64,000 nucleotides of DNA from Escherichia coli (GCF_002854065.1 NZ_CP024147.1), one strand, 5' to 3'. Positions 15,490 through 48,869 are shown, counted from the stretch's first letter. Notes: a model not told the origin generated them from the sequence alone. A program made the numbers and translations.

Positions 15490-15765
15490 GTGGCTTCTGT
15501 TTCTATCAGCTGTCCCTCCTGTTCAGCTACTGACGGGGTGGTGCGTAACGGCAAAAGCACTGCCGGACATCAGCGCTATCTCTGCTCTCACTGCCGTAAA
15601 ACATGGCAACTGCAGTTCACTTACACCGCTTCTCAACCCGGTACGCACCAGAAAATCATTGATATGGCCATGAATGGCGTTGGATGCCGGGCAACCGCCC
15701 GCATTATGGGCGTTGGCCTCAACACGATTTTCCGCCATTTAAAAAACTCAGGCCGCAGTCGGTAA
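15490..15765 (+). CDS. insA: IS1 protein InsA
   Basis: Protein identical to the other two InsA copies; GTG start. Confidence 0.95.
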
Positions 15766-16187
15766 CCTCGCGCATACAGCCGGGCAGTGACGTCATCGTC
15801 TGCGCGGAAATGGACGAACAGTGGGGATACGTCGGGGCTAAATCGCGCCAGCGCTGGCTGTTTTACGCGTATGACAGGCTCCGGAAGACGGTTGTTGCGC
15901 ACGTATTCGGTGAACGCACTATGGCGACGCTGGGGCGTCTTATGAGCCTGCTGTCACCCTTTGACGTGGTGATATGGATGACGGATGGCTGGCCGCTGTA
16001 TGAATCCCGCCTGAAGGGAAAGCTGCACGTAATCAGCAAGCGATATACGCAGCGAATTGAGCGGCATAACCTGAATCTGAGGCAGCACCTGGCACGGCTG
16101 GGACGGAAGTCGCTGTCGTTCTCAAAATCGGTGGAGCTGCATGACAAAGTCATCGGGCATTATCTGAACATAAAACACTATCAATAA
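15684..16187 (+). CDS. insB: IS1 transposase InsB
   Basis: Protein identical to the other two InsB copies. Confidence 0.95.
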
Positions 16188-16468
16188 GTTGGAGTCATTA
16201 CCAACGCGGTAATAGAGAAAGAGGTTAATTTCATTTGGCAAAGGGAAGTATCATCAGCAAAATTTTCGCTGTAGAGGTATCGAATTTCCTGACTTTTTTA
16301 CCCTATTTCCCATCCTGATGCGTAATAATCCCAATTTATCACATTGATTTTATCGCCACTCATATTGATACGTATCACTGTCCCTATTCAGAGTCCTGTT
16401 TCGTATCATATCTGTGTTTTTTTAACGTCATCACACTTCCTTCCTCCCCTAACGCTTATCGTCGTTTC

Positions 16469-16484
16469 TGGCGTAAATCTTGCC
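16469..16484 (+). promoter_or_regulatory. Candidate sigma-54 (-24/-12) promoter upstream of xdhA
   Basis: TGGCGTAAATCTTGCC: GG at 16470-16471 and GC at 16482-16483 with canonical spacing and TTGC at -12; about 55 bp upstream of the xdhA start. Confidence 0.5.
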
Positions 16485-18847: not shown

Positions 18848-19726
18848 ATGTTTGATTTTGCTTCTTACCATCGCGCAGCAACCCTTGCCGATGCCATCAA
18901 CCTGCTGGCTGACAACCCGCAGGCCAAACTGCTCGCCGGTGGCACTGACGTACTGATTCAGCTCCACCATCACAATGACCGTTATCGCCATATTGTTGAT
19001 ATTCATAATCTGGCGGAGCTGCGGGGAATTACGCTGGCGGAAGATGGCTCGCTACGTATCGGCTCTGCAACGACATTTACCCAGCTAATAGAAGATCCTA
19101 TAACTCAACGTCATCTCCCGGCGTTATGTGCTGCGGCCTCGTCCATTGCTGGACCGCAGATCCGTAACGTCGCTACCTACGGTGGAAATATTTGCAACGG
19201 TGCCACCAGCGCAGATTCTGCCACGCCAACGCTCATTTATGACGCGAAACTGGAGATCCACTCCCCACGCAGTGTTCGTTTCGTCCCGATTAATGGCTTT
19301 CACACCGGGCCGGGCAAAGTGTCTCTTGAGCATGACGAAATCCTTGTCGCCTTTCATTTTCCGCCCCAGCCGAAAGAACACGTGGGCAGCGCGCATTTTA
19401 AATATGCCATGCGCGACGCAATGGATATTTCAACGATTGGCTGCGCCGCACATTGCCGACTGGATAACGGCAATTTCAGCGAATTACGTCTGGCATTTGG
19501 TGTTGCCGCGCCAACGCCGATTCGCTGCCAACATGCCGAACAGACTGCACAAAATGCGCCATTAAACCTGCAAACGCTTGAAGCTATCAGCGAATCTGTC
19601 CTGCAAGATGTCGCCCCGCGTTCTTCATGGCGGGCCAGTAAAGAGTTTCGTCTGCATCTCATCCAGACGATGACCAAAAAAGTGATTAGCGAAGCCGTCG
19701 CCGCGGCGGGGGGAAAATTGCAATGA
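18848..19726 (+). CDS. xdhB: Xanthine dehydrogenase, FAD-binding subunit
   Basis: 292-aa ORF; FAD-binding CO-dehydrogenase-flavoprotein-type fold ([11 protein letters not shown]). Confidence 0.92.
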
Positions 19727-20241: not shown

Positions 20242-22020
20242 TTATGTGTTTAACAACTCATATTTCTTAATCTTGCGATAGAGCGTAGCAATGCCGATGC
20301 CCAGTTCATCAGCAACTTGCTTCTTGCTGTTATGACGTGAAAGCGCCTCGCGGATCATTTGCTTTTCCATCTCCTCCAGCGCCGTGCCGCCCGCATCATC
20401 GAGTGACAGGTGTGCCTCAGTGACCTCTGTTACATCACTTTGCTCCGTTGTGCCATTATTCAGCAGATTTGGCGGCAATAGCGTGCTGTCGATAACTTCA
20501 CCTGAAGGAACAACGTTAACCAGATATTCCATCAAATTGCTTAACTCGCGCAGGTTTCCGGGCCAACGATGCTTACGCAATATTTCGACGACATCGGGAG
20601 CAATGCCAGGATAAACCGATCCCAGACGACGGGTATGCAGATGTAAAAAGTAATGCACCAGTAGTTCAATATCTTCCTGACGTTCACGCAGCGGTGGCAG
20701 AGTTATCGGGATAACATTAAGTCGGTAGAAGAGATCTTCGCGGAATTTACCTTCGGCAATGAACTGGGCCAAATTCTGGTTAGTTGCAGAAATGATGCGA
20801 ATGTCGACTTGTATTGGGCTACTGGCACCAATCGGCAGAATTTCACGTGCCTCAATAGCGCGCAGTAATTTAGCCTGCAACATTAATGGCATATCACCTA
20901 TTTCATCTAGAAACAGCGTGCCCGTATTCGCCGCCTGAATCAACCCTGTTTTACCGTTGGCAGAAGCGCCAGTAAATGCGCCTTTAACATAACCGAACAG
21001 TTCGCTCTCCAGAAGCTGCTCCGGAATCGCGGCACAGTTGATAGCAATAAAGGGTTTATTCCGTCTTCCGCTCAACTTATGGATTGCACGGGCGACGACT
21101 TCTTTACCCGTGCCGCTTTCACCAACCACCATAACGCTGGATGGGCTGGGTGCAATACGGCTAATGAGTCGTTTTAATTGCCGCATAACACGGCACTCGC
21201 CAACCAATTGTTCAATATGCGGTTCATCAGGTGCATTTGCTACAGAAAAACTGGTATGCGATTGGTGAAACGCCATTAAAAATAATTGTCGGCCCTGAAT
21301 GTTATGCAATTGGCCAATGATTAATTCACTTTTATCGTCCCACGAAACAATATGCTGCATATGTCCATGGGTAAAATTACTCTCAAATGTTAATGGTCTG
21401 AAACGGATAGGTTTCCCAATAATATTATTTTGTACAATACCAAGTGTTTTTAAGGCAGTCTGATTAACAAACTGAACCCGACTTTCATCATCAACAACTA
21501 ATACGCCCTGATCCATATTATCGATCATGGTCGCGAATATTTTACTGATGTTATCTCCTGGCCCCTGATCCTCCAGAAGTTTCGAAACAAAAATGGTGGA
21601 TATATGGCGAACATAATCAGAAAATTCGCGTAAATTATCACTGATATGCTCTTGTTGCTCGTGGGTAACGGCAATCAAACTTATCACCCCAACACAACGA
21701 TCCTGTAAAATGACAGGCGTACCCAGAAATGCTTTTTCGCGGCAATTTTCTTTACTATCGCAACCTTCGCAAAGGGGATCGAAGCGAGACTGTGTCACAA
21801 CTTTTTCAGTTTTCGTTTCCAGGACGTGGCGGAGCAGGCGTGAGTTGCCGCTCAACTGGCGACCAAGAAACTTCCCATACGCGCCAGTTCCGGCGACGCG
21901 ACACAAGTTTTCATCAACGATCTCAACCTCAAGCTGCAAAACGCTGGCAAGCATTCTGGCAAAACGCTGAATTGTCGGTTGAATTTGCATCAATACTGAC
22001 TGCGTAGTAGCAAGCTCCAT
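20242..22020 (-). CDS. ygeV: Sigma-54-dependent transcriptional activator (enhancer-binding protein)
   Basis: 592-aa ORF with central AAA+ domain (VVGESGTGKE Walker A; GAFTGA motif) and C-terminal HTH. Confidence 0.92.
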   Translation of the reverse strand: MELATTQSVLMQIQPTIQRFARMLASVLQLEVEIVDENLCRVAGTGAYGKFLGRQLSGNSRLLRHVLETKTEKVVTQSRFDPLCEGCDSKENCREKAFLGTPVILQDRCVGVISLIAVTHEQQEHISDNLREFSDYVRHISTIFVSKLLEDQGPGDNISKIFATMIDNMDQGVLVVDDESRVQFVNQTALKTLGIVQNNIIGKPIRFRPLTFESNFTHGHMQHIVSWDDKSELIIGQLHNIQGRQLFLMAFHQSHTSFSVANAPDEPHIEQLVGECRVMRQLKRLISRIAPSPSSVMVVGESGTGKEVVARAIHKLSGRRNKPFIAINCAAIPEQLLESELFGYVKGAFTGASANGKTGLIQAANTGTLFLDEIGDMPLMLQAKLLRAIEAREILPIGASSPIQVDIRIISATNQNLAQFIAEGKFREDLFYRLNVIPITLPPLRERQEDIELLVHYFLHLHTRRLGSVYPGIAPDVVEILRKHRWPGNLRELSNLMEYLVNVVPSGEVIDSTLLPPNLLNNGTTEQSDVTEVTEAHLSLDDAGGTALEEMEKQMIREALSRHNSKKQVADELGIGIATLYRKIKKYELLNT

Positions 22021-22389
22021 AGCTTTACCTTCCAGACTTACTTAAAAGTCGATCATTGAAGACGTTGATGGTTCACAGATCATGATGATATTAACTCAGG
22101 CGAAATTGGCTTTGATAAAAACATAAGATTTTTATCACTTTCTAATGAAATTATGGAAGAGATATCACATTTCTATATCAATATGAGAATTACGGCGGTG
22201 AGTTTATCAAACTGACGAGGGATAGCCTGCCCCTTTATCTTATTTCTGATACTTAGCAGCAAATAAATAACGCAATAAAAAAAGCCAAACGTTTTCGTAT
22301 TTTACAAACAACCGGAAGCTAGCATCAATTTGTGATCAACCCCACACATTATCCGTCAAATTAGTCTTTTGCAGCCCCGTGGATAATTC

Positions 22390-22405
22390 TGGCACACTTA
22401 TTGTT
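22390..22405 (+). promoter_or_regulatory. Candidate sigma-54 promoter upstream of ygeW (non-canonical -12)
   Basis: TGGCACACTTATTGTT: perfect -24 TGGCAC, but -12 is TTGT rather than TTGC; about 90 bp upstream of ygeW. Confidence 0.3.
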
Positions 22406-22495
22406 AGTCCCAGGTATAGCTGTGAAAACACCAATCACTTTGGCAAGTCACAGTGAAATAAACCACTTTGCCTGTCATTCCACTACCGGGACTTT

Positions 22496-23686
22496 ATGAT
22501 GAAAACTGTTAATGAGCTGATTAAGGATATCAATTCGCTGACCTCTCACCTTCACGAGAAAGATTTTTTGTTAACGTGGGAACAGACGCCAGATGAACTG
22601 AAACAAGTACTGGACGTTGCCGCAGCATTAAAAGCACTGCGTGCTGAAAACATCTCAACCAAAGTCTTTAATAGTGGATTAGGTATTTCCGTATTCCGCG
22701 ACAACTCCACTCGTACCCGCTTCTCTTATGCTTCCGCGCTTAACCTGCTCGGCCTTGCACAGCAAGATCTCGATGAAGGCAAATCACAAATCGCTCACGG
22801 CGAAACCGTGCGTGAAACCGCCAATATGATCTCCTTCTGCGCCGACGCTATTGGTATTCGCGACGATATGTATCTGGGCGCAGGCAACGCCTATATGCGT
22901 GAAGTTGGCGCTGCACTTGATGACGGTTACAAGCAGGGTGTACTGCCACAGCGTCCGGCTTTAGTGAACCTGCAATGCGATATTGACCACCCGACTCAGT
23001 CAATGGCTGACCTCGCGTGGTTACGTGAACACTTTGGTTCACTGGAAAACCTGAAAGGTAAAAAAATCGCCATGACCTGGGCCTACTCTCCAAGCTATGG
23101 CAAACCGCTCTCTGTACCACAAGGCATCATCGGTCTGATGACTCGCTTCGGTATGGATGTCACCCTGGCCCATCCGGAAGGCTACGACCTGATCCCGGAT
23201 GTGGTTGAAGTGGCGAAAAACAATGCTAAAGCCTCCGGTGGTAGCTTCCGTCAGGTCACCAGCATGGAAGAAGCCTTCAAAGACGCAGACATCGTTTATC
23301 CGAAGTCATGGGCACCTTACAAAGTGATGGAAGAGCGTACTGAATTGCTGCGTGCGAACGATCACGAAGGCTTAAAAGCACTGGAAAAACAGTGTCTGGC
23401 ACAGAACGCGCAACACAAAGACTGGCATTGTACTGAAGAGATGATGGAACTGACCCGTGATGGCGAAGCCCTGTACATGCACTGCCTGCCAGCTGATATC
23501 AGCGGCGTATCCTGCAAAGAAGGTGAAGTGACTGAAGGCGTATTCGAAAAATACCGTATCGCTACCTACAAAGAAGCCAGCTGGAAGCCTTATATCATCG
23601 CCGCGATGATCCTGTCCCGTAAATACGCCAAACCAGGTGCACTGCTCGAGCAACTGCTGAAAGAAGCGCAAGAACGCGTGAAATAA
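22496..23686 (+). CDS. ygeW: Carbamoyltransferase-family protein (OTCase/ATCase fold), substrate unknown from sequence
   Basis: 396-aa ORF with the carbamoyl-phosphate-binding STRTR motif. Confidence 0.9.
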   Translation: MMKTVNELIKDINSLTSHLHEKDFLLTWEQTPDELKQVLDVAAALKALRAENISTKVFNSGLGISVFRDNSTRTRFSYASALNLLGLAQQDLDEGKSQIAHGETVRETANMISFCADAIGIRDDMYLGAGNAYMREVGAALDDGYKQGVLPQRPALVNLQCDIDHPTQSMADLAWLREHFGSLENLKGKKIAMTWAYSPSYGKPLSVPQGIIGLMTRFGMDVTLAHPEGYDLIPDVVEVAKNNAKASGGSFRQVTSMEEAFKDADIVYPKSWAPYKVMEERTELLRANDHEGLKALEKQCLAQNAQHKDWHCTEEMMELTRDGEALYMHCLPADISGVSCKEGEVTEGVFEKYRIATYKEASWKPYIIAAMILSRKYAKPGALLEQLLKEAQERVK

Positions 23687-23743
23687 CCCCTCGGGCCGAT
23701 CAGCTGGTCGGCCCTCTATTTCCAGAGGCCAAAAGGATAGGAT

Positions 23744-24940
23744 ATGTCCGTTTTCTCATTGAAGATTGATATCGCCGATAACAAATTTTTCAACGGCGAA
23801 ACATCACCGCTCTTTTCGCAAAGCCAGGCCAAACTGGCGCGCCAGTTCCACCAGAAAATAGCTGGTTATCGCCCAACACCGCTTTGTGCGCTGGACGATC
23901 TCGCAAACCTTTTTGGTGTGAAGAAAATTCTTGTCAAAGACGAATCAAAACGATTCGGTCTGAACGCCTTCAAAATGCTCGGCGGTGCGTACGCCATCGC
24001 TCAATTATTGTGTGAAAAATATCATCTTGATATCGAAACGCTGTCATTTGAGCACCTGAAAAATGCCATCGGCGAAAAAATGACTTTCGCGACCACCACC
24101 GACGGCAACCACGGGCGCGGTGTGGCGTGGGCAGCGCAGCAACTCGGACAGAATGCGGTGATTTACATGCCGAAAGGTTCTGCTCAGGAACGCGTTGACG
24201 CCATTCTGAACCTCGGTGCCGAGTGCATCGTCACGGATATGAACTATGACGATACCGTTCGCCTGACCATGCAACACGCGCAGCAGCACGGCTGGGAAGT
24301 GGTACAGGACACGGCATGGGAAGGTTACACCAAAATCCCAACCTGGATCATGCAAGGCTACGCAACCCTGGCAGATGAAGCCGTCGAGCAAATGCGTGAA
24401 ATGGGCGTAACCCCGACGCACGTTCTGCTGCAAGCCGGTGTCGGAGCAATGGCCGGTGGTGTGCTGGGTTATCTGGTCGACGTCTATAGCCCGCAAAATC
24501 TGCACAGCATTATTGTTGAACCTGACAAAGCTGACTGTATTTATCGCTCCGGCGTCAAAGGCGACATCGTCAACGTTGGCGGTGATATGGCCACCATCAT
24601 GGCGGGCCTGGCCTGTGGCGAACCTAACCCGCTGGGCTGGGAAATCCTACGTAACTGCGCCACCCAATTCATCTCCTGCCAGGACAGCGTTGCCGCATTA
24701 GGTATGCGCGTGCTGGGTAATCCGTACGGCAACGACCCGCGCATCATCTCCGGTGAATCCGGCGCTGTCGGTTTGGGCGTTCTCGCGGCGGTTCATTATC
24801 ACCCGCAACGTCAAAGCCTGATGGAAAAACTGGCGCTGAACAAAGATGCCGTAGTGCTGGTTATCAGCACTGAAGGTGACACCGACGTGAAGCACTATCG
24901 CGAAGTTGTCTGGGAAGGCAAACACGCTGTAGCACCTTAA
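23744..24940 (+). CDS. ygeX: Diaminopropionate ammonia-lyase (PLP-dependent, fold type II)
   Basis: 398-aa ORF; AAGGA Shine-Dalgarno upstream. Confidence 0.9.
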   Translation: MSVFSLKIDIADNKFFNGETSPLFSQSQAKLARQFHQKIAGYRPTPLCALDDLANLFGVKKILVKDESKRFGLNAFKMLGGAYAIAQLLCEKYHLDIETLSFEHLKNAIGEKMTFATTTDGNHGRGVAWAAQQLGQNAVIYMPKGSAQERVDAILNLGAECIVTDMNYDDTVRLTMQHAQQHGWEVVQDTAWEGYTKIPTWIMQGYATLADEAVEQMREMGVTPTHVLLQAGVGAMAGGVLGYLVDVYSPQNLHSIIVEPDKADCIYRSGVKGDIVNVGGDMATIMAGLACGEPNPLGWEILRNCATQFISCQDSVAALGMRVLGNPYGNDPRIISGESGAVGLGVLAAVHYHPQRQSLMEKLALNKDAVVLVISTEGDTDVKHYREVVWEGKHAVAP

Positions 24941-24997
24941 TCACCCTATTGGAACTGCTCCCTGCAAAACGGGGAGTAAAAAATCTGGAGAAAAATA

Positions 24998-26209
24998 ATG
25001 GCTAAGAATATTCCATTCAAACTGATTCTTGAAAAAGCAAAAGATTACCAGACGGATATGACTCGCTTCCTGCGCGACATGGTTGCTATTCCCAGTGAAA
25101 GCTGCGACGAGAAACGCGTAGTACATCGTATTAAAGAAGAGATGGAAAAAGTCGGCTTCGATAAAGTTGAAATCGACCCGATGGGTAACGTTCTCGGTTA
25201 TATCGGCCACGGCCCGCGTCTGGTGGCAATGGACGCTCATATCGATACCGTCGGCATTGGCAACATCAAAAACTGGGACTTCGATCCGTACGAAGGCATG
25301 GAAACTGATGAGCTGATCGGTGGTCGCGGGACTTCCGACCAGGAAGGCGGCATGGCATCTATGGTTTATGCCGGTAAAATCATTAAAGACCTCGGTCTGG
25401 AAGATGAATATACCCTGCTGGTTACCGGTACTGTGCAGGAAGAAGACTGCGACGGTCTGTGCTGGCAGTACATTATTGAACAATCCGGCATTCGCCCGGA
25501 ATTTGTGGTCAGTACCGAACCAACCGACTGCCAGGTATACCGTGGTCAGCGCGGTCGTATGGAAATTCGTATTGATGTTCAGGGTGTTAGCTGCCACGGT
25601 TCTGCGCCAGAACGCGGTGACAACGCCATTTTCAAAATGGGTCCGATTCTTGGCGAATTACAAGAACTCTCCCAACGTCTGGGTTATGACGAATTCCTCG
25701 GCAAAGGCACCCTCACCGTTTCTGAAATCTTCTTCACATCCCCAAGCCGTTGCGCTGTAGCAGATAGCTGCGCCGTCTCTATTGACCGCCGTCTGACCTG
25801 GGGCGAAACCTGGGAAGGCGCGCTGGACGAAATCCGCGCCCTGCCTGCAGTACAGAAAGCTAACGCGGTTGTTTCTATGTACAACTACGACCGTCCGTCC
25901 TGGACTGGCCTGGTTTACCCAACCGAATGCTACTTCCCGACCTGGAAAGTGGAAGAAGATCACTTCACCGTTAAAGCACTGGTGAATGCCTACGAAGGGC
26001 TGTTTGGCAAAGCGCCGGTTGTTGATAAGTGGACCTTCTCAACTAACGGCGTATCTATCATGGGCCGTCACGGCATTCCGGTGATCGGCTTTGGCCCGGG
26101 TAAAGAACCTGAAGCGCATGCACCTAACGAAAAAACCTGGAAATCTCACCTGGTGACCTGTGCCGCGATGTACGCTGCAATCCCGTTAAGCTGGCTGGCA
26201 ACCGAATAA
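24998..26209 (+). CDS. ygeY: M20/ArgE/DapE-family metallopeptidase or amidohydrolase
   Basis: 403-aa ORF with M20-type metal-binding regions. Confidence 0.9.
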
Positions 26210-26226
26210 TTACTCTTCACTTATTC

Positions 26227-26251
26227 CCCTCCGGTTCGCCGGAGGGTTTTT
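26227..26251 (+). terminator. Intrinsic terminator or attenuator between ygeY and hyuA
   Basis: Stem CCCTCCGG/CCGGAGGG with TTCG loop, then TTTTT; the hyuA GGAG Shine-Dalgarno (26252-26255) follows directly. Confidence 0.6.
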
Positions 26252-26261
26252 GGAGTTTGCT

Positions 26262-27647
26262 ATGCGCGTATTGATCAAAAACGGCACTGTCGTTAACGCA
26301 GATGGACAAGCCAAACAGGATTTGCTGATTGAAAGCGGGATTGTTCGCCAGTTGGGCAACAATATTTCGCCGCAGCTCCCGTATGAAGAAATTGATGCCA
26401 CTGGCTGTTACGTTTTCCCTGGCGGCGTGGATGTCCATACGCATTTCAATATTGATGTCGGCATCGCGCGCAGTTGTGATGATTTTTTTACCGGTACCCG
26501 CGCAGCTGCGTGTGGCGGTACAACAACCATTATTGACCATATGGGATTTGGCCCAAACGGCTGTCGGTTACGCCATCAACTGGAGGTTTATCGTGGTTAT
26601 GCCGCCCATAAAGCGGTCATCGATTACAGCTTTCACGGTGTGATCCAGCACATTAATCACGCAATCCTCGACGAAATCCCGATGATGGTCGAGGAAGGAC
26701 TGAGCAGTTTTAAACTCTATTTAACCTATCAATACAAACTCAACGATGACGAGGTTTTGCAGGCATTACGCCGTCTGCATGAATCCGGCGCGCTGACCAC
26801 CGTGCACCCGGAAAATGATGCGGCTATCGCCAGCAAGCGGGCGGAGTTTATCGCCGCAGGGTTAACCGCGCCGCGCTATCACGCCTTGAGTCGCCCTCTG
26901 GAATGCGAAGCGGAAGCCATCGCCCGCATGATTAACCTGGCACAAATTGCCGGTAACGCCCCGCTCTATATCGTGCACCTGTCTAACGGCTTAGGTCTGG
27001 ATTATCTGCGTCTTGCCCGTGCGAATCACCAGCCAGTCTGGGTTGAAACCTGCCCACAATATCTCCTGTTGGACGAACGCAGCTACGATACAGAAGATGG
27101 CATGAAGTTCATTCTTAGCCCACCGCTGCGTAACGTACGCGAGCAGGACAAACTGTGGTGTGGCATCAGCGATGGTGCGATTGACGTGGTGGCGACCGAT
27201 CACTGCACGTTCTCAATGGCTCAACGCCTGCAAATTTCTAAAGGCGATTTCAGTCGCTGCCCAAATGGCTTACCCGGTGTGGAAAACCGCATGCAGTTAC
27301 TGTTTTCCAGTGGCGTGATGACGGGACGTATAACACCGGAACGTTTTGTTGAATTAACCAGCGCGATGCCCGCCAGGCTGTTTGGCCTGTGGCCGCAAAA
27401 AGGATTATTAGCGCCCGGTTCCGATGGCGACGTGGTGATTATCGACCCACGTCAGAGCCAACAAATTCAGCATCGCCATCTCCACGACAACGCCGACTAC
27501 TCGCCATGGGAGGGTTTTACCTGTCAGGGCGCGATTGTCAGAACCTTATCCCGTGGTGAAACGATTTTCTGTGACGGCACCTTTACAGGCAAAGCCGGGC
27601 GAGGTCGTTTCCTGCGACGCAAACCGTTTGTCCCTCCCGTGCTCTAA
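26262..27647 (+). CDS. hyuA: D-hydantoinase/dihydropyrimidinase-family amidohydrolase
   Basis: 461-aa ORF from MRVLIKNGTVVNADGQ with the metal-binding HxH motif (GGVDVHTHF); the track ORF starts 4 codons earlier at a TTG inside the terminator. Confidence 0.9.
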   Translation: MRVLIKNGTVVNADGQAKQDLLIESGIVRQLGNNISPQLPYEEIDATGCYVFPGGVDVHTHFNIDVGIARSCDDFFTGTRAAACGGTTTIIDHMGFGPNGCRLRHQLEVYRGYAAHKAVIDYSFHGVIQHINHAILDEIPMMVEEGLSSFKLYLTYQYKLNDDEVLQALRRLHESGALTTVHPENDAAIASKRAEFIAAGLTAPRYHALSRPLECEAEAIARMINLAQIAGNAPLYIVHLSNGLGLDYLRLARANHQPVWVETCPQYLLLDERSYDTEDGMKFILSPPLRNVREQDKLWCGISDGAIDVVATDHCTFSMAQRLQISKGDFSRCPNGLPGVENRMQLLFSSGVMTGRITPERFVELTSAMPARLFGLWPQKGLLAPGSDGDVVIIDPRQSQQIQHRHLHDNADYSPWEGFTCQGAIVRTLSRGETIFCDGTFTGKAGRGRFLRRKPFVPPVL

Positions 27648-27694
27648 CCACTGCCAGGGATCTATACACAATCAAGAATGATGAGTGAGGAAAA

Positions 27695-28627
27695 ATGAGT
27701 AAGAAAATTGTTCTCGCCCTGGGCGGGAATGCGCTGGGCGATGACCTGGCCGGACAAATGAAAGCGGTAAAAATTACTTCTCAGGCAATTGTTGATTTAA
27801 TTGCCCAGGGACATGAAGTTATCGTCACTCATGGTAACGGGCCGCAGGTGGGCATGATTAACCAGGCCTTTGAAGCTGCCGCAAAAACTGAAGCACACTC
27901 GCCAATGCTGCCGATGTCTGTCTGTGTTGCCTTAAGTCAGGGTTATATTGGTTACGATCTACAAAACGCTTTAAGAGAAGAACTGCTTTCTCGTGGCATT
28001 AATAAACCGGTAGCAACGCTGGTTACCCAGGTCGAAGTCGACGCTAACGATCCGGCATTCCTCAACCCGACCAAGCCGATCGGTTCGTTCTTTACCGAGC
28101 AAGAAGCAGAGCAACTGACAAAACAGGGTTACACTCTGAAAGAAGATGCTGGTCGCGGCTATCGCCGTGTTGTTGCCTCGCCAAAACCGGTTGATATCAT
28201 TGAAAAAGAAACGGTTAAAGCGTTGGTAGAAGCAGGCCAGGTAGTGATTACCGTTGGCGGTGGTGGTATCCCTGTTATTCGTGAAGGTAACCATCTGCGT
28301 GGTGCCAGCGCGGTTATCGATAAAGACTGGGCCAGCGCCCGTTTAGCAGAAATGATTGATGCCGATATGCTGATCATTCTGACTGCGGTAGAAAAAGTGG
28401 CCATTAACTTCGGTAAAGAGAATGAACAGTGGCTCGATCGCCTGTCATTAAGTGATGCTGAACGCTTTATCGAAGAAGGTCATTTTGCGAAAGGTTCTAT
28501 GCTGCCTAAAGTGGAAGCTGCCGCCTCGTTTGCTCGCTCTCGCGCAGGTCGTGAAGCACTGATTACCGTATTGAGCAAAGCGAAAGAAGGGATTGAAGGC
28601 AAAACCGGAACGGTGATTTGTCAGTAA
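27695..28627 (+). CDS. yqeA: Carbamate kinase-like protein
   Basis: 310-aa ORF starting MSKKIVLALGGNALG (amino-acid-kinase-family N-terminus). Confidence 0.9.
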   Translation: MSKKIVLALGGNALGDDLAGQMKAVKITSQAIVDLIAQGHEVIVTHGNGPQVGMINQAFEAAAKTEAHSPMLPMSVCVALSQGYIGYDLQNALREELLSRGINKPVATLVTQVEVDANDPAFLNPTKPIGSFFTEQEAEQLTKQGYTLKEDAGRGYRRVVASPKPVDIIEKETVKALVEAGQVVITVGGGGIPVIREGNHLRGASAVIDKDWASARLAEMIDADMLIILTAVEKVAINFGKENEQWLDRLSLSDAERFIEEGHFAKGSMLPKVEAAASFARSRAGREALITVLSKAKEGIEGKTGTVICQ

Positions 28628-28633
28628 TTTTAA

Positions 28634-28664
28634 GGCCGGGTGGGTAATACCATCCGGCCATTTT
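28634..28664 (+). terminator. Intrinsic terminator downstream of yqeA
   Basis: 10-bp stem GGCCGGGTGG/CCATCCGGCC (one G-U pair), then ATTTTCATTT. Confidence 0.6.
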
Positions 28665-28667
28665 CAT

Positions 28668-30293
28668 TTAAGCCACTTCCAGCACTTCTTTTGTCGCTTT
28701 CACGCCCTGATGCATCAACATCATTAACGCCTCAAGTACGCCGCCGCCAATCGCCCGGGCTTTATCAGAAACGCTGGTGAAATCAGCGGTTTCACCACGA
28801 GGATCGATATCACCAATTTTAAAACCACCAACCACTGCCAGGCCGTCGTTCAACAAGCCACGCACCATCCCCGTCAACGGTGCTTTAATTTCATGCTCAC
28901 CAATCCAGGCAATCACATCGCCCTCTTTCGCCAGAACGCCTAATTTCACGTTGGATCGCATAATGCCTGCAGCAGGAGCACGGATCACCCGTCGGGTGGT
29001 ATGCCCCATAATATTGCCAGGAACACCGGTATTCTCCTGCGCACAACCAGAGTAAATCACCTGACCGAGCCAGTGCCCGCGATTTGTTTCAATTACCGCA
29101 TGACAATCCTTCCCAGCAGTAAAGCCCGGCCCAAGCGCGATTGTTACTGGTGCCATATCTGCCCGCGTTCCCAAATTCTGTTTCGCCAGAATAGCGTCCA
29201 CCACGCAAAGCGGTTTCAGTTCATCAAGCAATGAACAGGCGGGATCTACCATCACAGGGATGAATCCGCGTTCGGTAAGTTTCATCGCTTCCGCAGAGCT
29301 GGTTGTCAGGCGAGCAGTGACGCCTTCGACCGTCATTTCGCCATCGAACACGGCCTGGGCAAACGCCACGGTACAACGAATCACTGTCGGTTTTTCCACT
29401 TCCAGCATGATCACTTTAAAACCCGCATGATACAGACGTAGCGCCACACCACTGGCGATATCCCCCGCACCGCGAATCACCACCAGCTGGTGTCCGGAAG
29501 GATGAGAAGGTTTCATCATCAGCCCACCCGGCGCGTTATTTTTCACCTGTAATATTTCTGCCAGCACGCTGATGGCGATCTCCTGCGGCGTTTCCGCACC
29601 TATGTTGTAACCAACGGGCGCATGTAAACGGGCAATATGTTCTTCAGCCACGCCTTTCTCACGCAATTGACGCAGGAAAAGCTGAACCTTGCGACGACTT
29701 GCCAGCAACCCCAACCATGCAATGGGCTGTTCAATGAGTTTGTCGAGGGCTTCACGATCCTGATTATTCGTGGCAATCAGGACAAAATTATCAGGGCGAA
29801 TATCCAGTGCTTCCACTGCCGCACCAAACGACTCAGCATGGAGAAGCGTGGTTGATGGTGGGAATAGTTCAGGATTGAGGCTTTCGCGATAAATATCAGC
29901 AACGGCAATATCAAATCCTAATAGCGCCGCACTCTGGGCTATCGCCCGGTTGACATGCCCCGCGCCAATCAACACCAGACGTGGACGCATACCATGGACG
30001 CTGATAAATACTGACATTGCACCTCCACAATCTGACCCGACAGCATCCGCACCGTTACGAGCCATACGTCCATGGAATAATCGCGGCTTACGTTCCTGCA
30101 ATGCCTGAAGCGACTCTTCAATCACCTTCCGCTCAACCATTCCGCCACCAATTGTACCGACGATAGAACCATCGGCGCGCACTAACATTTGTGCAGAATG
30201 GCGGGGAGTCGAGCCTCGGCTATCAACAATTTGCGCCATCGCAAACGGACAATTTTGCTCTTCGAGTTTTGCAGCCTCTGTGAAAATATTCAT
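28668..30293 (-). CDS. yqeB: XdhC/CoxI-family accessory protein (putative selenium-dependent molybdenum hydroxylase maturation factor)
   Basis: 541-aa ORF with Rossmann-like NAD-binding segments; family and function assignment from established comparative genomics, not shown by sequence alone. Confidence 0.85.
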   Translation of the reverse strand: MNIFTEAAKLEEQNCPFAMAQIVDSRGSTPRHSAQMLVRADGSIVGTIGGGMVERKVIEESLQALQERKPRLFHGRMARNGADAVGSDCGGAMSVFISVHGMRPRLVLIGAGHVNRAIAQSAALLGFDIAVADIYRESLNPELFPPSTTLLHAESFGAAVEALDIRPDNFVLIATNNQDREALDKLIEQPIAWLGLLASRRKVQLFLRQLREKGVAEEHIARLHAPVGYNIGAETPQEIAISVLAEILQVKNNAPGGLMMKPSHPSGHQLVVIRGAGDIASGVALRLYHAGFKVIMLEVEKPTVIRCTVAFAQAVFDGEMTVEGVTARLTTSSAEAMKLTERGFIPVMVDPACSLLDELKPLCVVDAILAKQNLGTRADMAPVTIALGPGFTAGKDCHAVIETNRGHWLGQVIYSGCAQENTGVPGNIMGHTTRRVIRAPAAGIMRSNVKLGVLAKEGDVIAWIGEHEIKAPLTGMVRGLLNDGLAVVGGFKIGDIDPRGETADFTSVSDKARAIGGGVLEALMMLMHQGVKATKEVLEVA

Positions 30294-30340
30294 ACCAACC
30301 TCAATGGATATCCTTTCAGTAACCCGGAATACCCGGGCCG

Positions 30341-31111
30341 CTAATTCACAAATCTGCGCGCGATTGCAGGATGTTCTTGTATATCGCCCAGCCAGATTGC
30401 CTCTACGTCATGTTGTTGCAGCGGTTGAAGGAGCTCGCTTTGTGCAATCGCATTCTCACATTGAGAAAAACGGTTAATGAACCAGACTCGCCGACAACCT
30501 TGCGGTACGTTTTTAAACGCCCCCTGAGGGTGGCGAACCAGCGCAACGAGATCGCTCAGTTGCAAGGTTGCATCAGGTGTTAACCCGGTAATATCAGCAA
30601 ACTGCGACCAGCGATGGACATTTTCTGTGCTCACTTTCGCGCCCAAAGTATGTCCTCCCATCACAGCAATCACGCAGCAACTGCTTTTGGGTATGCAAGG
30701 TTCGTGCTCATCAGGCGCTTTTAACGGCATTCCACGCGAGCCATCTGCTTCAATGAGAATTACGTCACACTCTGGTCGTTGCACCAGTGCATCAATCGCT
30801 TCTGGCGTAAATCCCTGCACTTTTCCCTGGTTCGCTTTCCAGCTGTGAAAACAAAATGAAATGGGGGATGTAAGAGACGCATGAGGAAGCATGGCGGGAT
30901 CACGACAGAAAACCACGGGCCAGTGTGACTTTGGCATAAACATATGTGTCGTCGTAGTGATTAACACACGCCTGCCGCGAGTCTGGAGCAGTTCTGCCAG
31001 CCAAAAAAGCAAGCTGGTTTTCCCCCCAGCACCAACAACAGAAATCACAGTGGGACGTTTCTGCGCACCTAAATCAATGAATAATGCCGATGGGTCAACT
31101 ATACTTTTCAC
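30341..31111 (-). CDS. yqeC: Putative selenium-dependent hydroxylase accessory protein YqeC (P-loop protein)
   Basis: 256-aa ORF with N-terminal Walker A (VVGAGGKTSL). Confidence 0.85.
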   Translation of the reverse strand: MKSIVDPSALFIDLGAQKRPTVISVVGAGGKTSLLFWLAELLQTRGRRVLITTTTHMFMPKSHWPVVFCRDPAMLPHASLTSPISFCFHSWKANQGKVQGFTPEAIDALVQRPECDVILIEADGSRGMPLKAPDEHEPCIPKSSCCVIAVMGGHTLGAKVSTENVHRWSQFADITGLTPDATLQLSDLVALVRHPQGAFKNVPQGCRRVWFINRFSQCENAIAQSELLQPLQQHDVEAIWLGDIQEHPAIARRFVN

Positions 31112-31792: not shown

Positions 31793-32016
31793 AAAACGTA
31801 GTTAAACGATTGCGTTCAAATATTTAACCCCTCCAGCACTCTTTATCATAATGATAAGGAATCACTGATTTTGAGAAAAGAGAAAAAGTGATAAATGGGC
31901 TGGCAATAATAATTTTCAGGAGTGATTTTAATTCTCATTTGGCACCTGTGAGTTCATTCACAAAAAGCCCTTAAGTTTCGAGCCGCCTCACATTTTTTTA
32001 TATTTCCCGCCAAACC

Positions 32017-32032
32017 TGGCAAGAGTGGTGCG
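32017..32032 (+). promoter_or_regulatory. Candidate sigma-54 promoter upstream of ygfK
   Basis: TGGCAAGAGTGGTGCG: GG and GC at canonical spacing, -12 region GTGC; about 85 bp upstream of ygfK. Confidence 0.35.
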
Positions 32033-32113
32033 ATTGTTGCTCTATCCCCCTAAACCACCGGATTTCTCAACACCGGTCACTCAATGATATCTGTATAAGC
32101 TAAGGAGAGGGTT

Positions 32114-44577: not shown

Positions 44578-45069
44578 TCACAGAGGATTCTCACCGCTGG
44601 CAACAATACGCTGCTGGCGGACTCGCCTGAGTTCTCTTTCAGTAAGCAACTGCAGCGCCTGTGTTGGGCAAGATTCAACGCAGGCTGGCCCCTCTTCCCG
44701 CTGTTCACAGAGATCGCATTTCACGATTTGTTGCCGGGTATCCCCCGGCAGCGACTGAATGGTGATCATTCCAAACGGGCACGCACTGACGCAACTCTGA
44801 CAGCCAATACAACGGGCAGAATTGGTCTGCACCACCTGCTCGCCCATCGTCAGCGCCCCCACGGGGCAAGCGCCAACACAAGGGGCGTTTTCACATTGGT
44901 GGCACATCACCGGCGCACTGATGCAGTCCAGTCGCTGTACCTTCAGCCGGGGTAAAAAGATATCGGCATTCAACTCCTGTTCTGAAGGGTGAGCGACCAC
45001 ACAGGCCACTTCACAAGTACGGCAGCCAATACAGTCAGCCGGATTAACGATAATTAACGATTTCATCAC
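44578..45069 (-). CDS. ygfS: 4Fe-4S ferredoxin-type protein
   Basis: 163-aa ORF with four CxxCxxCxxxCP-type clusters. Confidence 0.9.
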
Positions 45070-46985
45070 GATGCCTTCGTATCAAACAGAGTTAACATAT
45101 CGCGCGCCGCCTGCCTTCCTGCGGCCATGGCAGTGACAACCAGATCCGCGCCATGAACTGCATCCCCACCAGCAAAGACTTTTTTCAGATGCGTCTGGGT
45201 AGGTAAATACCCAACGTCGCCGGTTTGAATCAGGCCCCATTTATCGAGTTTAATTCCGCTGCCCTGCAACCACGGCATGGCATGCGCCTGGAAACCAAAG
45301 GCCATAATGAGAACATCGGCGGGCAATTCAAACTCTGAACCCGCAACCGGACGAGGACGACGGCGACCATCCGGCCCCGGCTCACCCATGGCGGTACGAA
45401 TCAGGCCCACCGCAGTTAAACGCCCATCTTCGTCACAAGCGATATATTGCGGCTGAACATTGAATTGAAACTCGACACCTTCCTCGCGCGCATTGACCAC
45501 CTCTTTGCGCGAGCCCGGCATACTGACTTCATCACGACGATACGCGCAGGTCACGCTGGCGGCATTGAGGCGGATGGAAGTCCGCAAACAATCCATTGTC
45601 GTATCGCCACCGCCCAATACCACGACTCGCTTACCTTCCACGTCCGTCAGCGGATACTCTTCAGACTCCGGCAATCCCATGAGCTGGCGGGTATGGGCAG
45701 TCAGGAACGGTAGAGCCTGAATGACACCGGGCGCATCTTCATGCGGCAGATCTGCTCGCATCATCCCGTAAGTCCCCACGCCGATGAAAACTGCATCATA
45801 TTCAGAAGTTAAATCGCTAAAGGTAATATCGCGGCCAATTTCACAGTTAAGATGAAAGTCGATTCCCATTGCGGTGAATATCTCTCGCCGCTGGCTTAAT
45901 ACCGTTTTATCGAGTTTGAAAGGAGGTATGCCAAAAGTCAGCATACCGCCAATTTCTGGATGGCGATCAAAGACATCAACCTGAACTCCTGCGCGCGCCA
46001 GAATATCAGCACACCCTAACCCTGCTGGTCCAGCGCCAATCACCGCCACTTTTTCGCTACGGGGAACAACTTTGCTGACATCGGGACGCCAGCCCATCGC
46101 CAGCGCGGTATCGGTGATGTAGCGTTCCAGATTACCGATAGAGACTGCGCCAGAGTGATCTTTCAAAGTACATGCGCCTTCACAAAGACGGTCCTGTGGA
46201 CATACCCTGCCGCAGATTTCTGGTAAGGAACTGGTCTGGTGGCAAAGTTCTGCCGCTTCAATAATCTTTCCTTCCTGTACCAGACGGATGTAATCCGGAA
46301 TAGCGTTATGCAGCGGGCAATGCCAGTTGCAGTTAGCTTTTTCGGCACAATAAACACAGCGGTCACTCTCATAAGTCGCTTGTTGTGGATCCAGCCCGCA
46401 ATAGATTTCGCCAAAGTGGTTTTTCCGTTCACTTGCTGAAATTTTATCTGCGCCTTTACGCGAGTTAACGGGGAGCAACGCTGCACTGCGAGATGGCTGA
46501 GCGTCTGATGACGCTTTTCCTGCTGCCGTTTTGCGCTGGCGGGCCACCTTTATCTGCTGTAACCCTTTATCGTCCATCAGTCGTAACGCCTGTGTTGGGC
46601 AAACTTCAATACAGGCTTGCGTGCCGGAACTGCGCTGTTTACAAAGGTCGCATTTCTGCGCAATCGTATCGACCATCTCAACGACGCCAAAGGGGCAAGC
46701 GATTGCGCATCTTTTACAACCAATACATTTTTGCTCGTCCAGTTGTACGCTATCGGACTGGAAAGTCAGAGCATTAACCGGACAAGCCGTAACGCAAGGG
46801 GCATTGTTGCAGTGATGGCAGGCCACCGGATTCGCAGCCAGGCCTTTCCCTACAACGTGGATACGTGGTCGAAAGTCACTGTGACTCAGCGGCCAGTTTT
46901 CTTGATTGTGTGCCACCGCACAGGCAATTTCACAAGCATGACAGCCTATACATTCCGCAGCTTCAGCAGCGATAAACTTATTCAT
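45066..46985 (-). CDS. ygfT: Fused Fe-S / FAD-NAD(P) pyridine nucleotide-disulfide oxidoreductase (GltD-like)
   Basis: 639-aa product from [15 protein letters not shown]; N-terminal ferredoxin Cys clusters and dinucleotide-binding motif ([12 protein letters not shown]); the track ORF has 5 extra N-terminal codons. Confidence 0.9.
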
Positions 46986-47336
46986 TTGCATCCCTTTCAT
47001 TTAATGAGTTATGTCTTCTCAAATTTCGCGATGCAATAAACGGGCATATATTAGGTAGCATGACCGTTTTAATTATAATTTTGCGACTGAGTTCAAATTA
47101 TTGCCCCTCAATCTATGCCGCTTTCATTATTTCAACATTGCCGATCAAAAGAGCGCTATCCAGATAAAAACGATTAAATGCGAGAGTGCGACATGCCAGA
47201 ATGATTAATGAAATATCAATATGAGAAAATTACAGATAATTCCATTGTCAGGTTCTCTTGTCATTTTCGTGGTTTAAGCACGATTATGTGATTGCCTCCG
47301 CAATTCCTGTCTCTAACTCCCCTTCCTCGCAAAAAC

Positions 47337-47352
47337 TGGCACTCCACGAGCA
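47337..47352 (+). promoter_or_regulatory. Candidate sigma-54 promoter upstream of uacT
   Basis: TGGCACTCCACGAGCA: perfect -24 TGGCAC, GC at canonical -12 spacing; about 70 bp upstream of the uacT start. Confidence 0.45.
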
Positions 47353-47420
47353 TGTGTTTAGACAGTTTCATTAACGTAAACGGTTGCTTTTTACTCTGGC
47401 GGGCGAAAGGAGAAACACTG

Positions 47421-48869
47421 ATGAGCGCCATAGATTCCCAACTTCCCTCATCTTCTGGGCAAGACCGCCCAACTGATGAGGTTGACCGCATATTATCACC
47501 AGGAAAGCTGATCATACTCGGTCTGCAACACGTCCTTGTCATGTACGCAGGTGCAGTCGCTGTTCCTCTTATGATTGGTGACCGACTGGGCCTCTCAAAA
47601 GAAGCTATTGCGATGCTCATTAGCTCGGATCTCTTTTGCTGCGGGATCGTCACATTATTGCAATGTATCGGTATCGGCCGCTTTATGGGGATCCGCCTGC
47701 CGGTGATTATGTCGGTGACCTTTGCTGCTGTAACACCAATGATAGCCATTGGGATGAACCCGGATATCGGCCTGCTGGGGATATTTGGTGCCACTATCGC
47801 CGCGGGTTTTATCACCACATTATTAGCGCCACTTATCGGTCGCTTGATGCCTTTATTCCCGCCACTGGTTACCGGTGTGGTTATTACTTCTATCGGACTT
47901 AGCATCATTCAGGTGGGTATTGACTGGGCCGCCGGAGGTAAAGGGAATCCGCAATATGGTAATCCCGTTTATTTAGGTATCTCCTTTGCCGTCTTAATTT
48001 TTATCTTGCTCATTACTCGCTATGCGAAAGGATTTATGTCCAACGTCGCCGTATTACTGGGGATTGTATTTGGCTTTTTACTTTCGTGGATGATGAATGA
48101 AGTCAATTTATCCGGGCTACATGATGCCTCGTGGTTTGCGATTGTTACGCCGATGTCGTTTGGTATGCCGATTTTCGATCCCGTTTCCATTCTGACCATG
48201 ACTGCCGTGTTAATCATCGTGTTTATCGAGTCGATGGGGATGTTCCTGGCACTGGGTGAAATAGTCGGTCGTAAACTCTCTTCGCACGATATTATTCGCG
48301 GGCTGCGTGTCGATGGCGTAGGGACAATGATAGGCGGAACGTTTAACAGCTTCCCCCATACGTCATTTTCTCAAAACGTTGGCCTGGTTAGCGTGACGCG
48401 CGTTCATAGCCGCTGGGTGTGTATTTCTTCGGGAATTATATTAATCCTGTTTGGCATGGTGCCAAAAATGGCGGTGCTGGTAGCCTCCATTCCGCAATTT
48501 GTGCTGGGCGGCGCTGGTCTGGTGATGTTCGGCATGGTACTGGCGACAGGGATTCGAATTCTGTCGAGCTGTAACTACACCACCAACCGTTACAACCTCT
48601 ATATTGTGGCGATCAGTCTCGGCGTTGGCATGACTCCGACGCTCTCTCACGATTTCTTTTCTAAGTTACCGGCCGTACTGCAACCGCTGCTACATAGCGG
48701 CATTATGCTCGCAACCCTTAGCGCCGTTGTGCTGAATGTCTTCTTTAATGGCTATCAGCATCATGCTGACCTGGTGAAGGAATCCGTCTCTGATAAAGAT
48801 TTAAAAGTCAGGACAGTACGTATGTGGCTTCTGATGCGCAAGCTGAAGAAAAATGAGCATGGAGAATAA
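47421..48869 (+). CDS. uacT: Uric acid:H+ symporter (NCS2/NAT family)
   Basis: 482-aa ORF from MSAIDSQLPSSSGQDRPTDE with AAAGGAG Shine-Dalgarno; the track ORF starts 43 codons upstream at a TTG. Confidence 0.92.
   Translation: MSAIDSQLPSSSGQDRPTDEVDRILSPGKLIILGLQHVLVMYAGAVAVPLMIGDRLGLSKEAIAMLISSDLFCCGIVTLLQCIGIGRFMGIRLPVIMSVTFAAVTPMIAIGMNPDIGLLGIFGATIAAGFITTLLAPLIGRLMPLFPPLVTGVVITSIGLSIIQVGIDWAAGGKGNPQYGNPVYLGISFAVLIFILLITRYAKGFMSNVAVLLGIVFGFLLSWMMNEVNLSGLHDASWFAIVTPMSFGMPIFDPVSILTMTAVLIIVFIESMGMFLALGEIVGRKLSSHDIIRGLRVDGVGTMIGGTFNSFPHTSFSQNVGLVSVTRVHSRWVCISSGIILILFGMVPKMAVLVASIPQFVLGGAGLVMFGMVLATGIRILSSCNYTTNRYNLYIVAISLGVGMTPTLSHDFFSKLPAVLQPLLHSGIMLATLSAVVLNVFFNGYQHHADLVKESVSDKDLKVRTVRMWLLMRKLKKNEHGE

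Follow-up and report, generated by a model that had tools for sequence, protein, structure and literature searches.

A conserved candidate sigma-54 promoter with a non-canonical -12 element upstream of the urate transporter gene uacT in Escherichia coli

The window analysed here is a 64,000-nt stretch of Escherichia coli DNA that carries the ygeV-to-uacT cluster, which encodes the anaerobic urate degradation route of gut bacteria; this route has recently been tied to host urate levels and gout. The regulation of this cluster is described in the literature as poorly understood, and urate strongly induces ygfK and ygfT. The gene uacT encodes a urate/proton symporter of 482 aa and occupies 47421-48869 on the plus strand, according to the RefSeq annotation of an identical E. 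coli stretch and to the ORF list. The gene ygfT (RefSeq annotation, 45066-46985, minus strand) is divergent from uacT, and the spacer between them has 435 bp. The sole gene of the cluster for a sigma-54 enhancer-binding protein is ygeV (20242-22020, minus strand), whose product matches the PFAM models PAS, Sigma54_activat and HTH_8. Upstream of xdhA there are three ORFs of 167 aa (7436-7939, 8227-8730 and 15684-16187) with repeated flanks, such as CCGGCAGTGCTTTTGCC at 8057, 8848 and 15550, which look like three copies of an insertion sequence. When published K-12 motif coordinates are placed on the window, the offset changes by 180 bp on going from ygeW to yqeC; the interval from about 22400 to 30700 therefore holds a 180-bp indel relative to MG1655.

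Sigma-54 promoters carry GG (-24/-25) and GC (-12/-13) doublets 10 bp apart, and transcription starts about 12 nt downstream of the GC. The candidate sigma-54 core promoter of uacT, evaluated by matrix score and ortholog conservation, is the 17-mer CTGGCACTCCACGAGCA at 47336-47352 on the plus strand. Positions 47337-47352 read TGGCACTCCACGAGCA, with GG at 47338-47339, GC at 47350-47351 and exactly 10 bases between them, which is the sigma-54 spacing, while the consensus TT is replaced by G47348 and A47349. The initial annotation recognized both doublets properly but miscounted the bases between the two halves as six; the sequence is TGGCAC-N5-GAGCA, which equals TGGCAC-N6-AGCA. Its distance of about 70 bp to the uacT start agrees with the 68 nt found between the end of the motif and the RefSeq ATG at 47421, and its remark that the motif falls in a spurious N-terminal extension is also borne out, as a longer ORF with a TTG start (47292-48869) encloses the motif. 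This TTG is evidently not the real start of uacT, since coding-type conservation across species begins only at the ATG, which is preceded by a GGAG ribosome-binding site in the cross-species alignment. Bonocora et al. 2015 place transcription starts 19 bp downstream of the centre of sigma-54 motifs (PMC4591121), and by this rule the predicted uacT start is 47363 on the plus strand, 19 nt downstream of the motif centre 47344, with a leader of 58 nt up to the ATG.

Bonocora et al. 2015 (PMC4591121) report 135 sigma-54 ChIP-seq sites with an associated motif; these were turned into a position weight matrix, with which the uacT motif was scored. The motif reaches 5.5 bits and ranks 194th, with 193 positions of the window scoring higher, and it lies below all of the bound sites, whose minimum, 5th percentile and median are 6.7, 10.4 and 14.4 bits. 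The shortfall sits in the -12 half: position 14 is A, found in 1/135 bound sites against T in 127/135, and position 13 is G, found in 5/135. The G+C-rich spacer TCCACG also scores worse than an A/T-rich one. A loose-consensus scan with TGGCAC-N5-TTGCW and up to 2 mismatches gives 46 matches vs 43 expected, and the window has 4 instances of the loose pattern TGGCAC-N7-GCA vs 0.96 expected. Judged in the E. coli sequence alone, the motif cannot be told from chance; its non-randomness becomes apparent only through its conservation in orthologous loci.

The three best matches in the window are the known xdhA, ygfK and ygeW promoters, and these are the only positions of at least 13 bits in the 2x64 kb of the two strands. 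Sigma-54 ChIP-seq peaks of Bonocora et al. 2015 (PMC4591121) are located at xdhA, ygeW, ygfK, inside yqeC and at ygfT. The intragenic site of yqeC, IS34 (TGAGCACGAACCTTGCA), is found at 30694-30710 on the minus strand. The ygfT site (47032-47048, minus strand, TATGCCCGTTTATTGCA) corresponds to ChIP-seq site OS32 with FAT 3 (PMC4591121) and is conserved in orthologs. It has a degenerate -24 element and a perfect -12 element (TTGCA), which is the mirror of the uacT defect, and scores only about 1 bit above the uacT motif. The ygfT -24 was compared between the window (47032-47048, minus strand) and loci L002, L003, L004, L016, L081, L082 and L087, and in every ortholog checked TATGCC, ATCGCC or AGCGCC stands for TGGCAC, so that a single G of the GG is left. 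Within xdhB, at 19546-19562 on the minus strand, there is a 12.8-bit matrix match, ATGGCGCATTTTGTGCA, antisense to the xdh genes and about 200 bp from a genomic SELEX site between xdhB and xdhC (K-12 position 3,001,538). In the Pluralibacter locus L088, a 13.3-bit motif centred at 5475 on the minus strand faces yqeB in the yqeB-ygfK spacer, which suggests that yqeB may also be under sigma-54 control.

Orthologs of uacT with 68-97% protein identity were collected with their flanks from representative genomes, and more were added by protein look-ups. The 11 loci in which uacT has its own upstream region belong to E. coli, E. albertii, two Citrobacter, Pseudocitrobacter, Serratia oryzae, Kluyvera, Raoultella, Pluralibacter and two metagenomic relatives. 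AAAACTGGCAY-N6-(A/C)GCAT precedes uacT in the same orientation in all 11 of them, at 54-132 nt from the ATG; the CTGGCA and GCAT blocks and their spacing are invariant and the bases between them vary. The 17-mers are CTGGCACTCCACGAGCA in E. coli (the window) and Pseudocitrobacter (L081), CTGGCATTCCACGAGCA in E. albertii (L001), CTGGCATCCCACGAGCA in Citrobacter sp. R56 (L016), CTGGCACTTTCTGAGCA in one metagenomic relative (L087), CTGGCACTGTCTGCGCA in C. freundii (L002), CTGGCATTCCCTAAGCA in Serratia oryzae (L003), CTGGCATCACCTAAGCA in Kluyvera (L004), CTGGCACTGCCTAAGCA in Raoultella (L082) and the other metagenomic relative (L086), and CTGGCACCGGATAAGCA in Pluralibacter (L005/L088). The alignment of the whole spacer has a mean column identity of 49%, and neutral sites are saturated at this distance, since YgfT itself is only 67-80% identical among these species. 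Conservation per position of the motif correlates with the information content of the bound sigma-54 sites (Spearman 0.57).

In E. coli, a query of 430 bp spanning the spacer has matches in 5316/5426 complete genomes, and the one divergent strain compared (97.4% identical) has 11 differences, none of them in the motif, the CRP-like sites or the palindrome described below. Two of the loci, L086 and Pluralibacter L005/L088, lack a neighbouring ygfT and have co-oriented upstream genes, yet they keep the uacT motif and the CRP-like site, so the element belongs to uacT and not to ygfT. The module is absent where uacT is internal to an operon, as in ygfK-ssnA-uacT of Erwinia L083 and of L084, and behind another permease (L085). 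In L083 (Erwinia sp. CGal63, 1-4446) and L084, uacT comes immediately after ygfK-ssnA and is co-oriented with it, the gaps being 19 and 132 bp. The transporter has here become part of the ygfK-ssnA catabolic operon; in E. coli, the corresponding operon is served by a sigma-54 promoter. In L007 (Hafnia), L010, L011, L012 and L014 (Aeromonas), a different conserved palindrome, TGYGCAYGTTYTGTGCA, is found about 150-180 bp upstream of the uacT homolog; that it takes the place of the sigma-54 module suggests that another regulator may govern the transporter in these genera.

The -12 half shows a conserved deviation of its own. Positions 13-14 are never the consensus T in the Enterobacteriaceae, being RA in 10/11 loci and GC in 1/11. 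Scores are 4.9-5.8 bits in the Escherichia-like group and 6.7-9.7 bits in the other orthologs. Morganella psychrotolerans and M. morganii have canonical sigma-54 motifs before uacT, TTGGTCTGTATTTTGCT with 13.5 bits and CTGGTCTGAATTTTGCT with 15.6 bits, respectively, and their uacT genes are also preceded by a pair of the palindromes with 21-bp spacing. A search for the YgeV protein, made to see if Morganella encodes it, returned near-identical E. coli sequences only.

A CRP-like site, TGTGATTGCCTCCGCA, is located at 47287-47302 and has 2 mismatches to TGTGA-N6-TCACA. Sites of this level are common by chance, with 35 matches vs 27 expected in the window. Its centre is 49.5 bp upstream of the uacT motif centre and would be at about -68.5 from the predicted start. 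The TGTGA is invariant in 11/11 loci and begins 48-49 bp before the motif, and the 30 bp between them are unconserved; in the right half, all orthologs keep the C, C and A. On the ygfT side, the CRP-like site TGCGACTGAGTTCAAA (47082-47097) is likewise centred 49.5 bp from the ygfT motif centre, a geometry that mirrors the uacT side. A TCACA-bearing element stands 48.5 bp from the motif centre at xdhA (16420-16435) and ygfK (31977-31992). A perfect CRP consensus occurs at 31947-31962 (ygfK) and a site with one mismatch at 22331-22346 (ygeW), and a 2025 preprint mentions a native Crp-binding site in the ygeV-ygeW spacer.

Binding sites of sigma-54 activators typically lie 80-200 bp upstream of the promoter. 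The ygfT-uacT spacer was compared with the regions upstream of the xdhA, ygeW and ygfK sigma-54 motifs, and the 12-mer TATCAATATGAG (47214-47225) recurs with 2 mismatches in total over the three other regions, vs 6-8 in shuffled controls. The full element is the palindrome TTATCAT-N-ATGATAA (consensus TTATCAWWATGATAA), which in the spacer reads ATATCAATATGAGAA at 47213-47227 and is a candidate YgeV site, YgeV being the obvious candidate binder because the cluster encodes no other enhancer-binding protein. The literature searched does not describe a YgeV binding site; the IsrR (YgeV) paper gives neither a binding site nor purine targets. The palindrome is centred at 47220. This places it 124 bp upstream of the centre of the uacT motif, at about -143 relative to the predicted uacT start, and 180 bp from the centre of the ygfT motif.

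The core TATCAWTATGAKA has, with at most 1 mismatch, 6 matches at 5 places in the window, vs 0.30 expected, and 4/5 of these places are upstream of ChIP-supported sigma-54 promoters, namely xdhA, ygeW, ygfK and ygfT/uacT. Upstream of the xdhA promoter (motif 16468-16484), the element lies at 16358-16370 on the minus strand, with a second copy 21 bp away at 16337-16349. The same search places it in the ygeV-ygeW spacer at 22176-22188 on the plus strand (ygeW motif 22389-22405), in an arrangement of 215 bp that is also found in L086, and in the ygfT-uacT spacer at 47214-47226. A perfect copy, TATCATTATGATA, is found at 31844-31856 upstream of the ygfK promoter (motif 32025-32041) and is also kept in Pluralibacter L088. 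The fifth place is intragenic, TATCAAGATGATA at 24020-24032 in ygeX with one mismatch, and no obvious sigma-54 motif was assigned to it.

Measured between centres, the palindrome lies 121-133 bp from the uacT motif in nine loci; four of them, those of E. coli, E. albertii, Citrobacter R56 and Serratia oryzae, share the value of 124 bp. The distance to the ygfT motif is 143-214 bp in the six loci measured. Where ygfT is not adjacent, the palindrome is clear in L086 (2 mismatches), which has a pair with 21-bp spacing, and weak in Pluralibacter, where the best match, 157 bp upstream of the uacT motif, has 4 mismatches. In Kluyvera, the scan of the expected place found nothing with 4 mismatches or fewer. 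The block CCAGAATGATT (47196-47206), about 21 bp farther upstream than the first site, is shared by E. coli, E. albertii, Citrobacter R56 and Serratia oryzae. In view of the pairs with 21-bp spacing at xdhA, in L086 and in Morganella, it may be another, partial enhancer site.

Published sigma-54 binding data, all from K-12, do not include uacT in any of three sets (ChIP-seq, ChIP-exo and genomic SELEX). The only ChIP-seq peak of the ygfT-uacT spacer is on the ygfT motif (OS32), about 300 bp from the uacT candidate, and no peak of high or low stringency is near U00096.2 position ~3029312, where the candidate lies (PMC4591121). The RpoN ChIP-exo target list has ygfS and ygfT and lacks b2888 (uacT), and the genomic SELEX tables for sigma-54 have the ygeV/ygeW spacer and lack both ygfT and ygfU (uacT). 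For ChIP-seq, cultures had been grown aerobically at 30 C in M9-glycerol without urate, and the authors report that genuine promoters, such as that of crl, escaped detection at high stringency (PMC4591121). Low CRP activity was considered as a cause of the absent signal and rejected, as these cultures were grown on glycerol. The non-canonical -12 element, which is the main reason for doubt about a sigma-54 promoter of uacT, may also explain why the ChIP signal is absent, and the negative occupancy data are not decisive.

Expression data connect uacT with the other operons of the cluster. [quoted passage not shown] PMC10602906 cites lowered ygfT expression in a ygeV mutant. The literature search found no paper linking ygfU/uacT with sigma-54 or rpoN, no transcript-start data for uacT and no data on rpoN or ygeV dependence of its expression. 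A sigma-54 promoter of uacT is absent from the binding maps examined and from the literature found that names ygfU/uacT.

The best account of these data, and a probable one, is that uacT has a promoter dependent on YgeV and sigma-54, with its core at 47336-47352 and a -12 element that is non-canonical yet conserved. The initial annotation had proposed a sigma-54 promoter of uacT, and shared sigma-54 control of transport and catabolism, from the perfect -24 and the GC doublet; this argument is insufficient at a chance-level score, and the proposal itself is supported by the invariance in 11 loci, the canonical motif in Morganella, the shared palindrome and the YgeV iModulon listing. The sequence elements, their conservation and their fixed geometry are what the analysis shows; how sigma-54, YgeV and CRP would bind them, and where and how transcription would be started, is inferred as follows. 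Sigma-54 RNA polymerase would bind the -24 element (AAAACTGGCAC) and the weak, T-less -12 element (GAGCAT). YgeV would bind the palindrome at 47213-47227, probably together with the partial site about 21 bp further upstream, and would contact the polymerase through DNA looping, with ATP hydrolysis opening the promoter. The CRP-like site, at its fixed 48-49 bp upstream, probably contributes by bending the DNA or by a contact, and would make expression responsive to carbon status. Lying between uacT and the divergent ygfT promoter, the enhancer may act on both. In this scheme, induction of urate uptake would go together with that of the xdhA, ygeW, ygfK and ygfT operons.

A different protein may instead use the conserved blocks. 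CTGGCA...GCAT could be its operator, for example as the direct repeat GGCAY-N6-AGCAT, with uacT transcribed from a sigma-70-type, CRP-assisted promoter and the resemblance to sigma-54 sites being coincidental; we consider this unlikely, although it is the alternative that survives best. It would account for a -12 half that never shows the consensus T at positions 13-14 in the enterobacteriaceal orthologs and that looks selected for a non-sigma-54 sequence, and it agrees with the missing sigma-54 ChIP signal and with the conserved CRP-like site upstream. From the CRP-like site to the uacT ATG, the orthologs share no sigma-70 -35/-10 pair, which favours the sigma-54 reading. A sigma-70 scan gives 2 weak matches vs 1.3 expected, neither of them conserved; one sigma-70-like sequence, TTGTCA-18-GATTAT (9/12) at 47258-47287, could be counted in its favour, but it is at chance frequency and its -35 is unconserved. 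Class I and class II CRP/sigma-70 geometries on the conserved blocks were tried and rejected: the distance from the CRP centre to the only conserved A-rich hexamer is 36-37 bp vs the 29.5 bp of class II, and no conserved -10 is found at class I distances. We know of no operator consensus that fits the CTGGCA...GCAT block, which also counts against this explanation, as do the canonical sigma-54 motif at the same place in Morganella and a palindrome that in the window, the intragenic copy apart, accompanies only sigma-54 promoters. A riboswitch in the uacT spacer or leader was a separate candidate and was rejected, as the Rfam scan of the spacer and leader gave only a sub-threshold chance match.

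It is distinctly improbable that the sigma-54 promoter has decayed, or is very weak, in E. coli and contributes little there, while working in Pluralibacter, C. freundii and Morganella, which have better motifs, with E. coli uacT transcribed mainly from another start. In favour of this, the lowest scores are those of E. coli, E. albertii and Citrobacter R56 (4.9-5.5 bits), with 6.7-9.7 bits in the others and 13.5-15.6 bits in Morganella, and the ChIP signal is absent in E. coli K-12. Against it, the GG and GC doublets, the CRP-like site and the palindrome are intact in E. coli, including the 97.4%-identical strain; the 430-bp query spanning the spacer has its matches in 5316/5426 complete E. 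coli genomes; the listing of PMC12133099 has uacT co-varying with sigma-54 operons in K-12 transcriptomes; and the ChIP-positive ygfT site is just about 1 bit better. A functionless chance match, to which the chance-level score and the 194th rank would point, is hardly credible and is already contradicted by the conservation data, as nine specified bases recur 48-49 bp from TGTGA in 11 loci with diverged sequence between them, for a per-locus chance of about 2 x 4^-9.

If uacT is under YgeV and sigma-54, urate uptake and catabolism would form one regulon, and its control elements at this locus, namely the sigma-54 core, the candidate YgeV operator and the CRP-like site, would be mapped, which could be of use for engineering probiotics that degrade urate. 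It would also mean that ChIP-based sigma-54 maps can overlook conserved promoters with weak -12 elements. The candidate YgeV operator and the conserved promoter geometry are by-products of the analysis. A further, tentative proposal, which we put forward with low confidence, is that the RAGCAT -12 element is kept under selection and forms a closed complex too unstable for ChIP, so that occupancy would need a stereospecifically placed CRP at -68.5 and the YgeV enhancer, the polymerase being 'recruited' and not pre-bound, and that TTATCAWWATGATAA would be the YgeV operator defining the anaerobic urate regulon.

Sigma-54 promoters, enhancer sites and CRP co-control are all of known kinds, and the closest systems for comparison are in the same cluster. 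The xdhA, ygeW, ygfK and ygfT promoters (OS29-OS32) have the GG-N10-GC core in common with the uacT motif, and, like uacT, they have a palindromic enhancer-like element 110-215 bp upstream, a CRP-like or TCACA element 48.5-58.5 bp upstream of the motif centre, and a place in the YgeV iModulon as listed in PMC12133099. In contrast to uacT, they have sigma-54 ChIP-seq peaks, and xdhA, ygeW and ygfK score 14-16 bits vs 5.5 for uacT. The uacT motif has a perfect -24 and a poor -12, and the divergent ygfT site is the opposite. The bound ygfT and paaY sites match the consensus comparably poorly to the uacT motif. The paaY site, intragenic IS16 (TTGGCATGGAAAAAGCA, FAT 5), is the sole bound site of the 135 that shares A at position 14 with the uacT orthologs (its -12 half has AAGCA), and its occupancy indicates that sigma-54 can occupy an A-14 type of -12 element in vivo; unlike uacT, it is intragenic and has an A/T-rich spacer and no known activator. 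The strong and well-characterised promoter glnAp2 (TTGGCACAGATTTCGCT, OS37) has C at position 14, as in the C. freundii uacT ortholog, so T at this position is not obligatory, and TGC at -14 to -12 is a consensus feature and not an absolute requirement. Unlike uacT, glnAp2 retains T at 12-13, has NtrC as its activator and gives a clear ChIP signal. The prpBCDE promoter of E. coli and Salmonella reportedly depends on sigma-54 and PrpR and requires cAMP-CRP, as is said to have been found by Lee, Newman and Keasling in 2005. Its site (OS01, GTGGCACACCCCTTGCT) is canonical and ChIP-positive, unlike that of uacT; both systems are catabolic and have an enhancer-binding protein encoded nearby, and the positive control by CRP that is reported for prpBCDE is the same that is proposed here for uacT.
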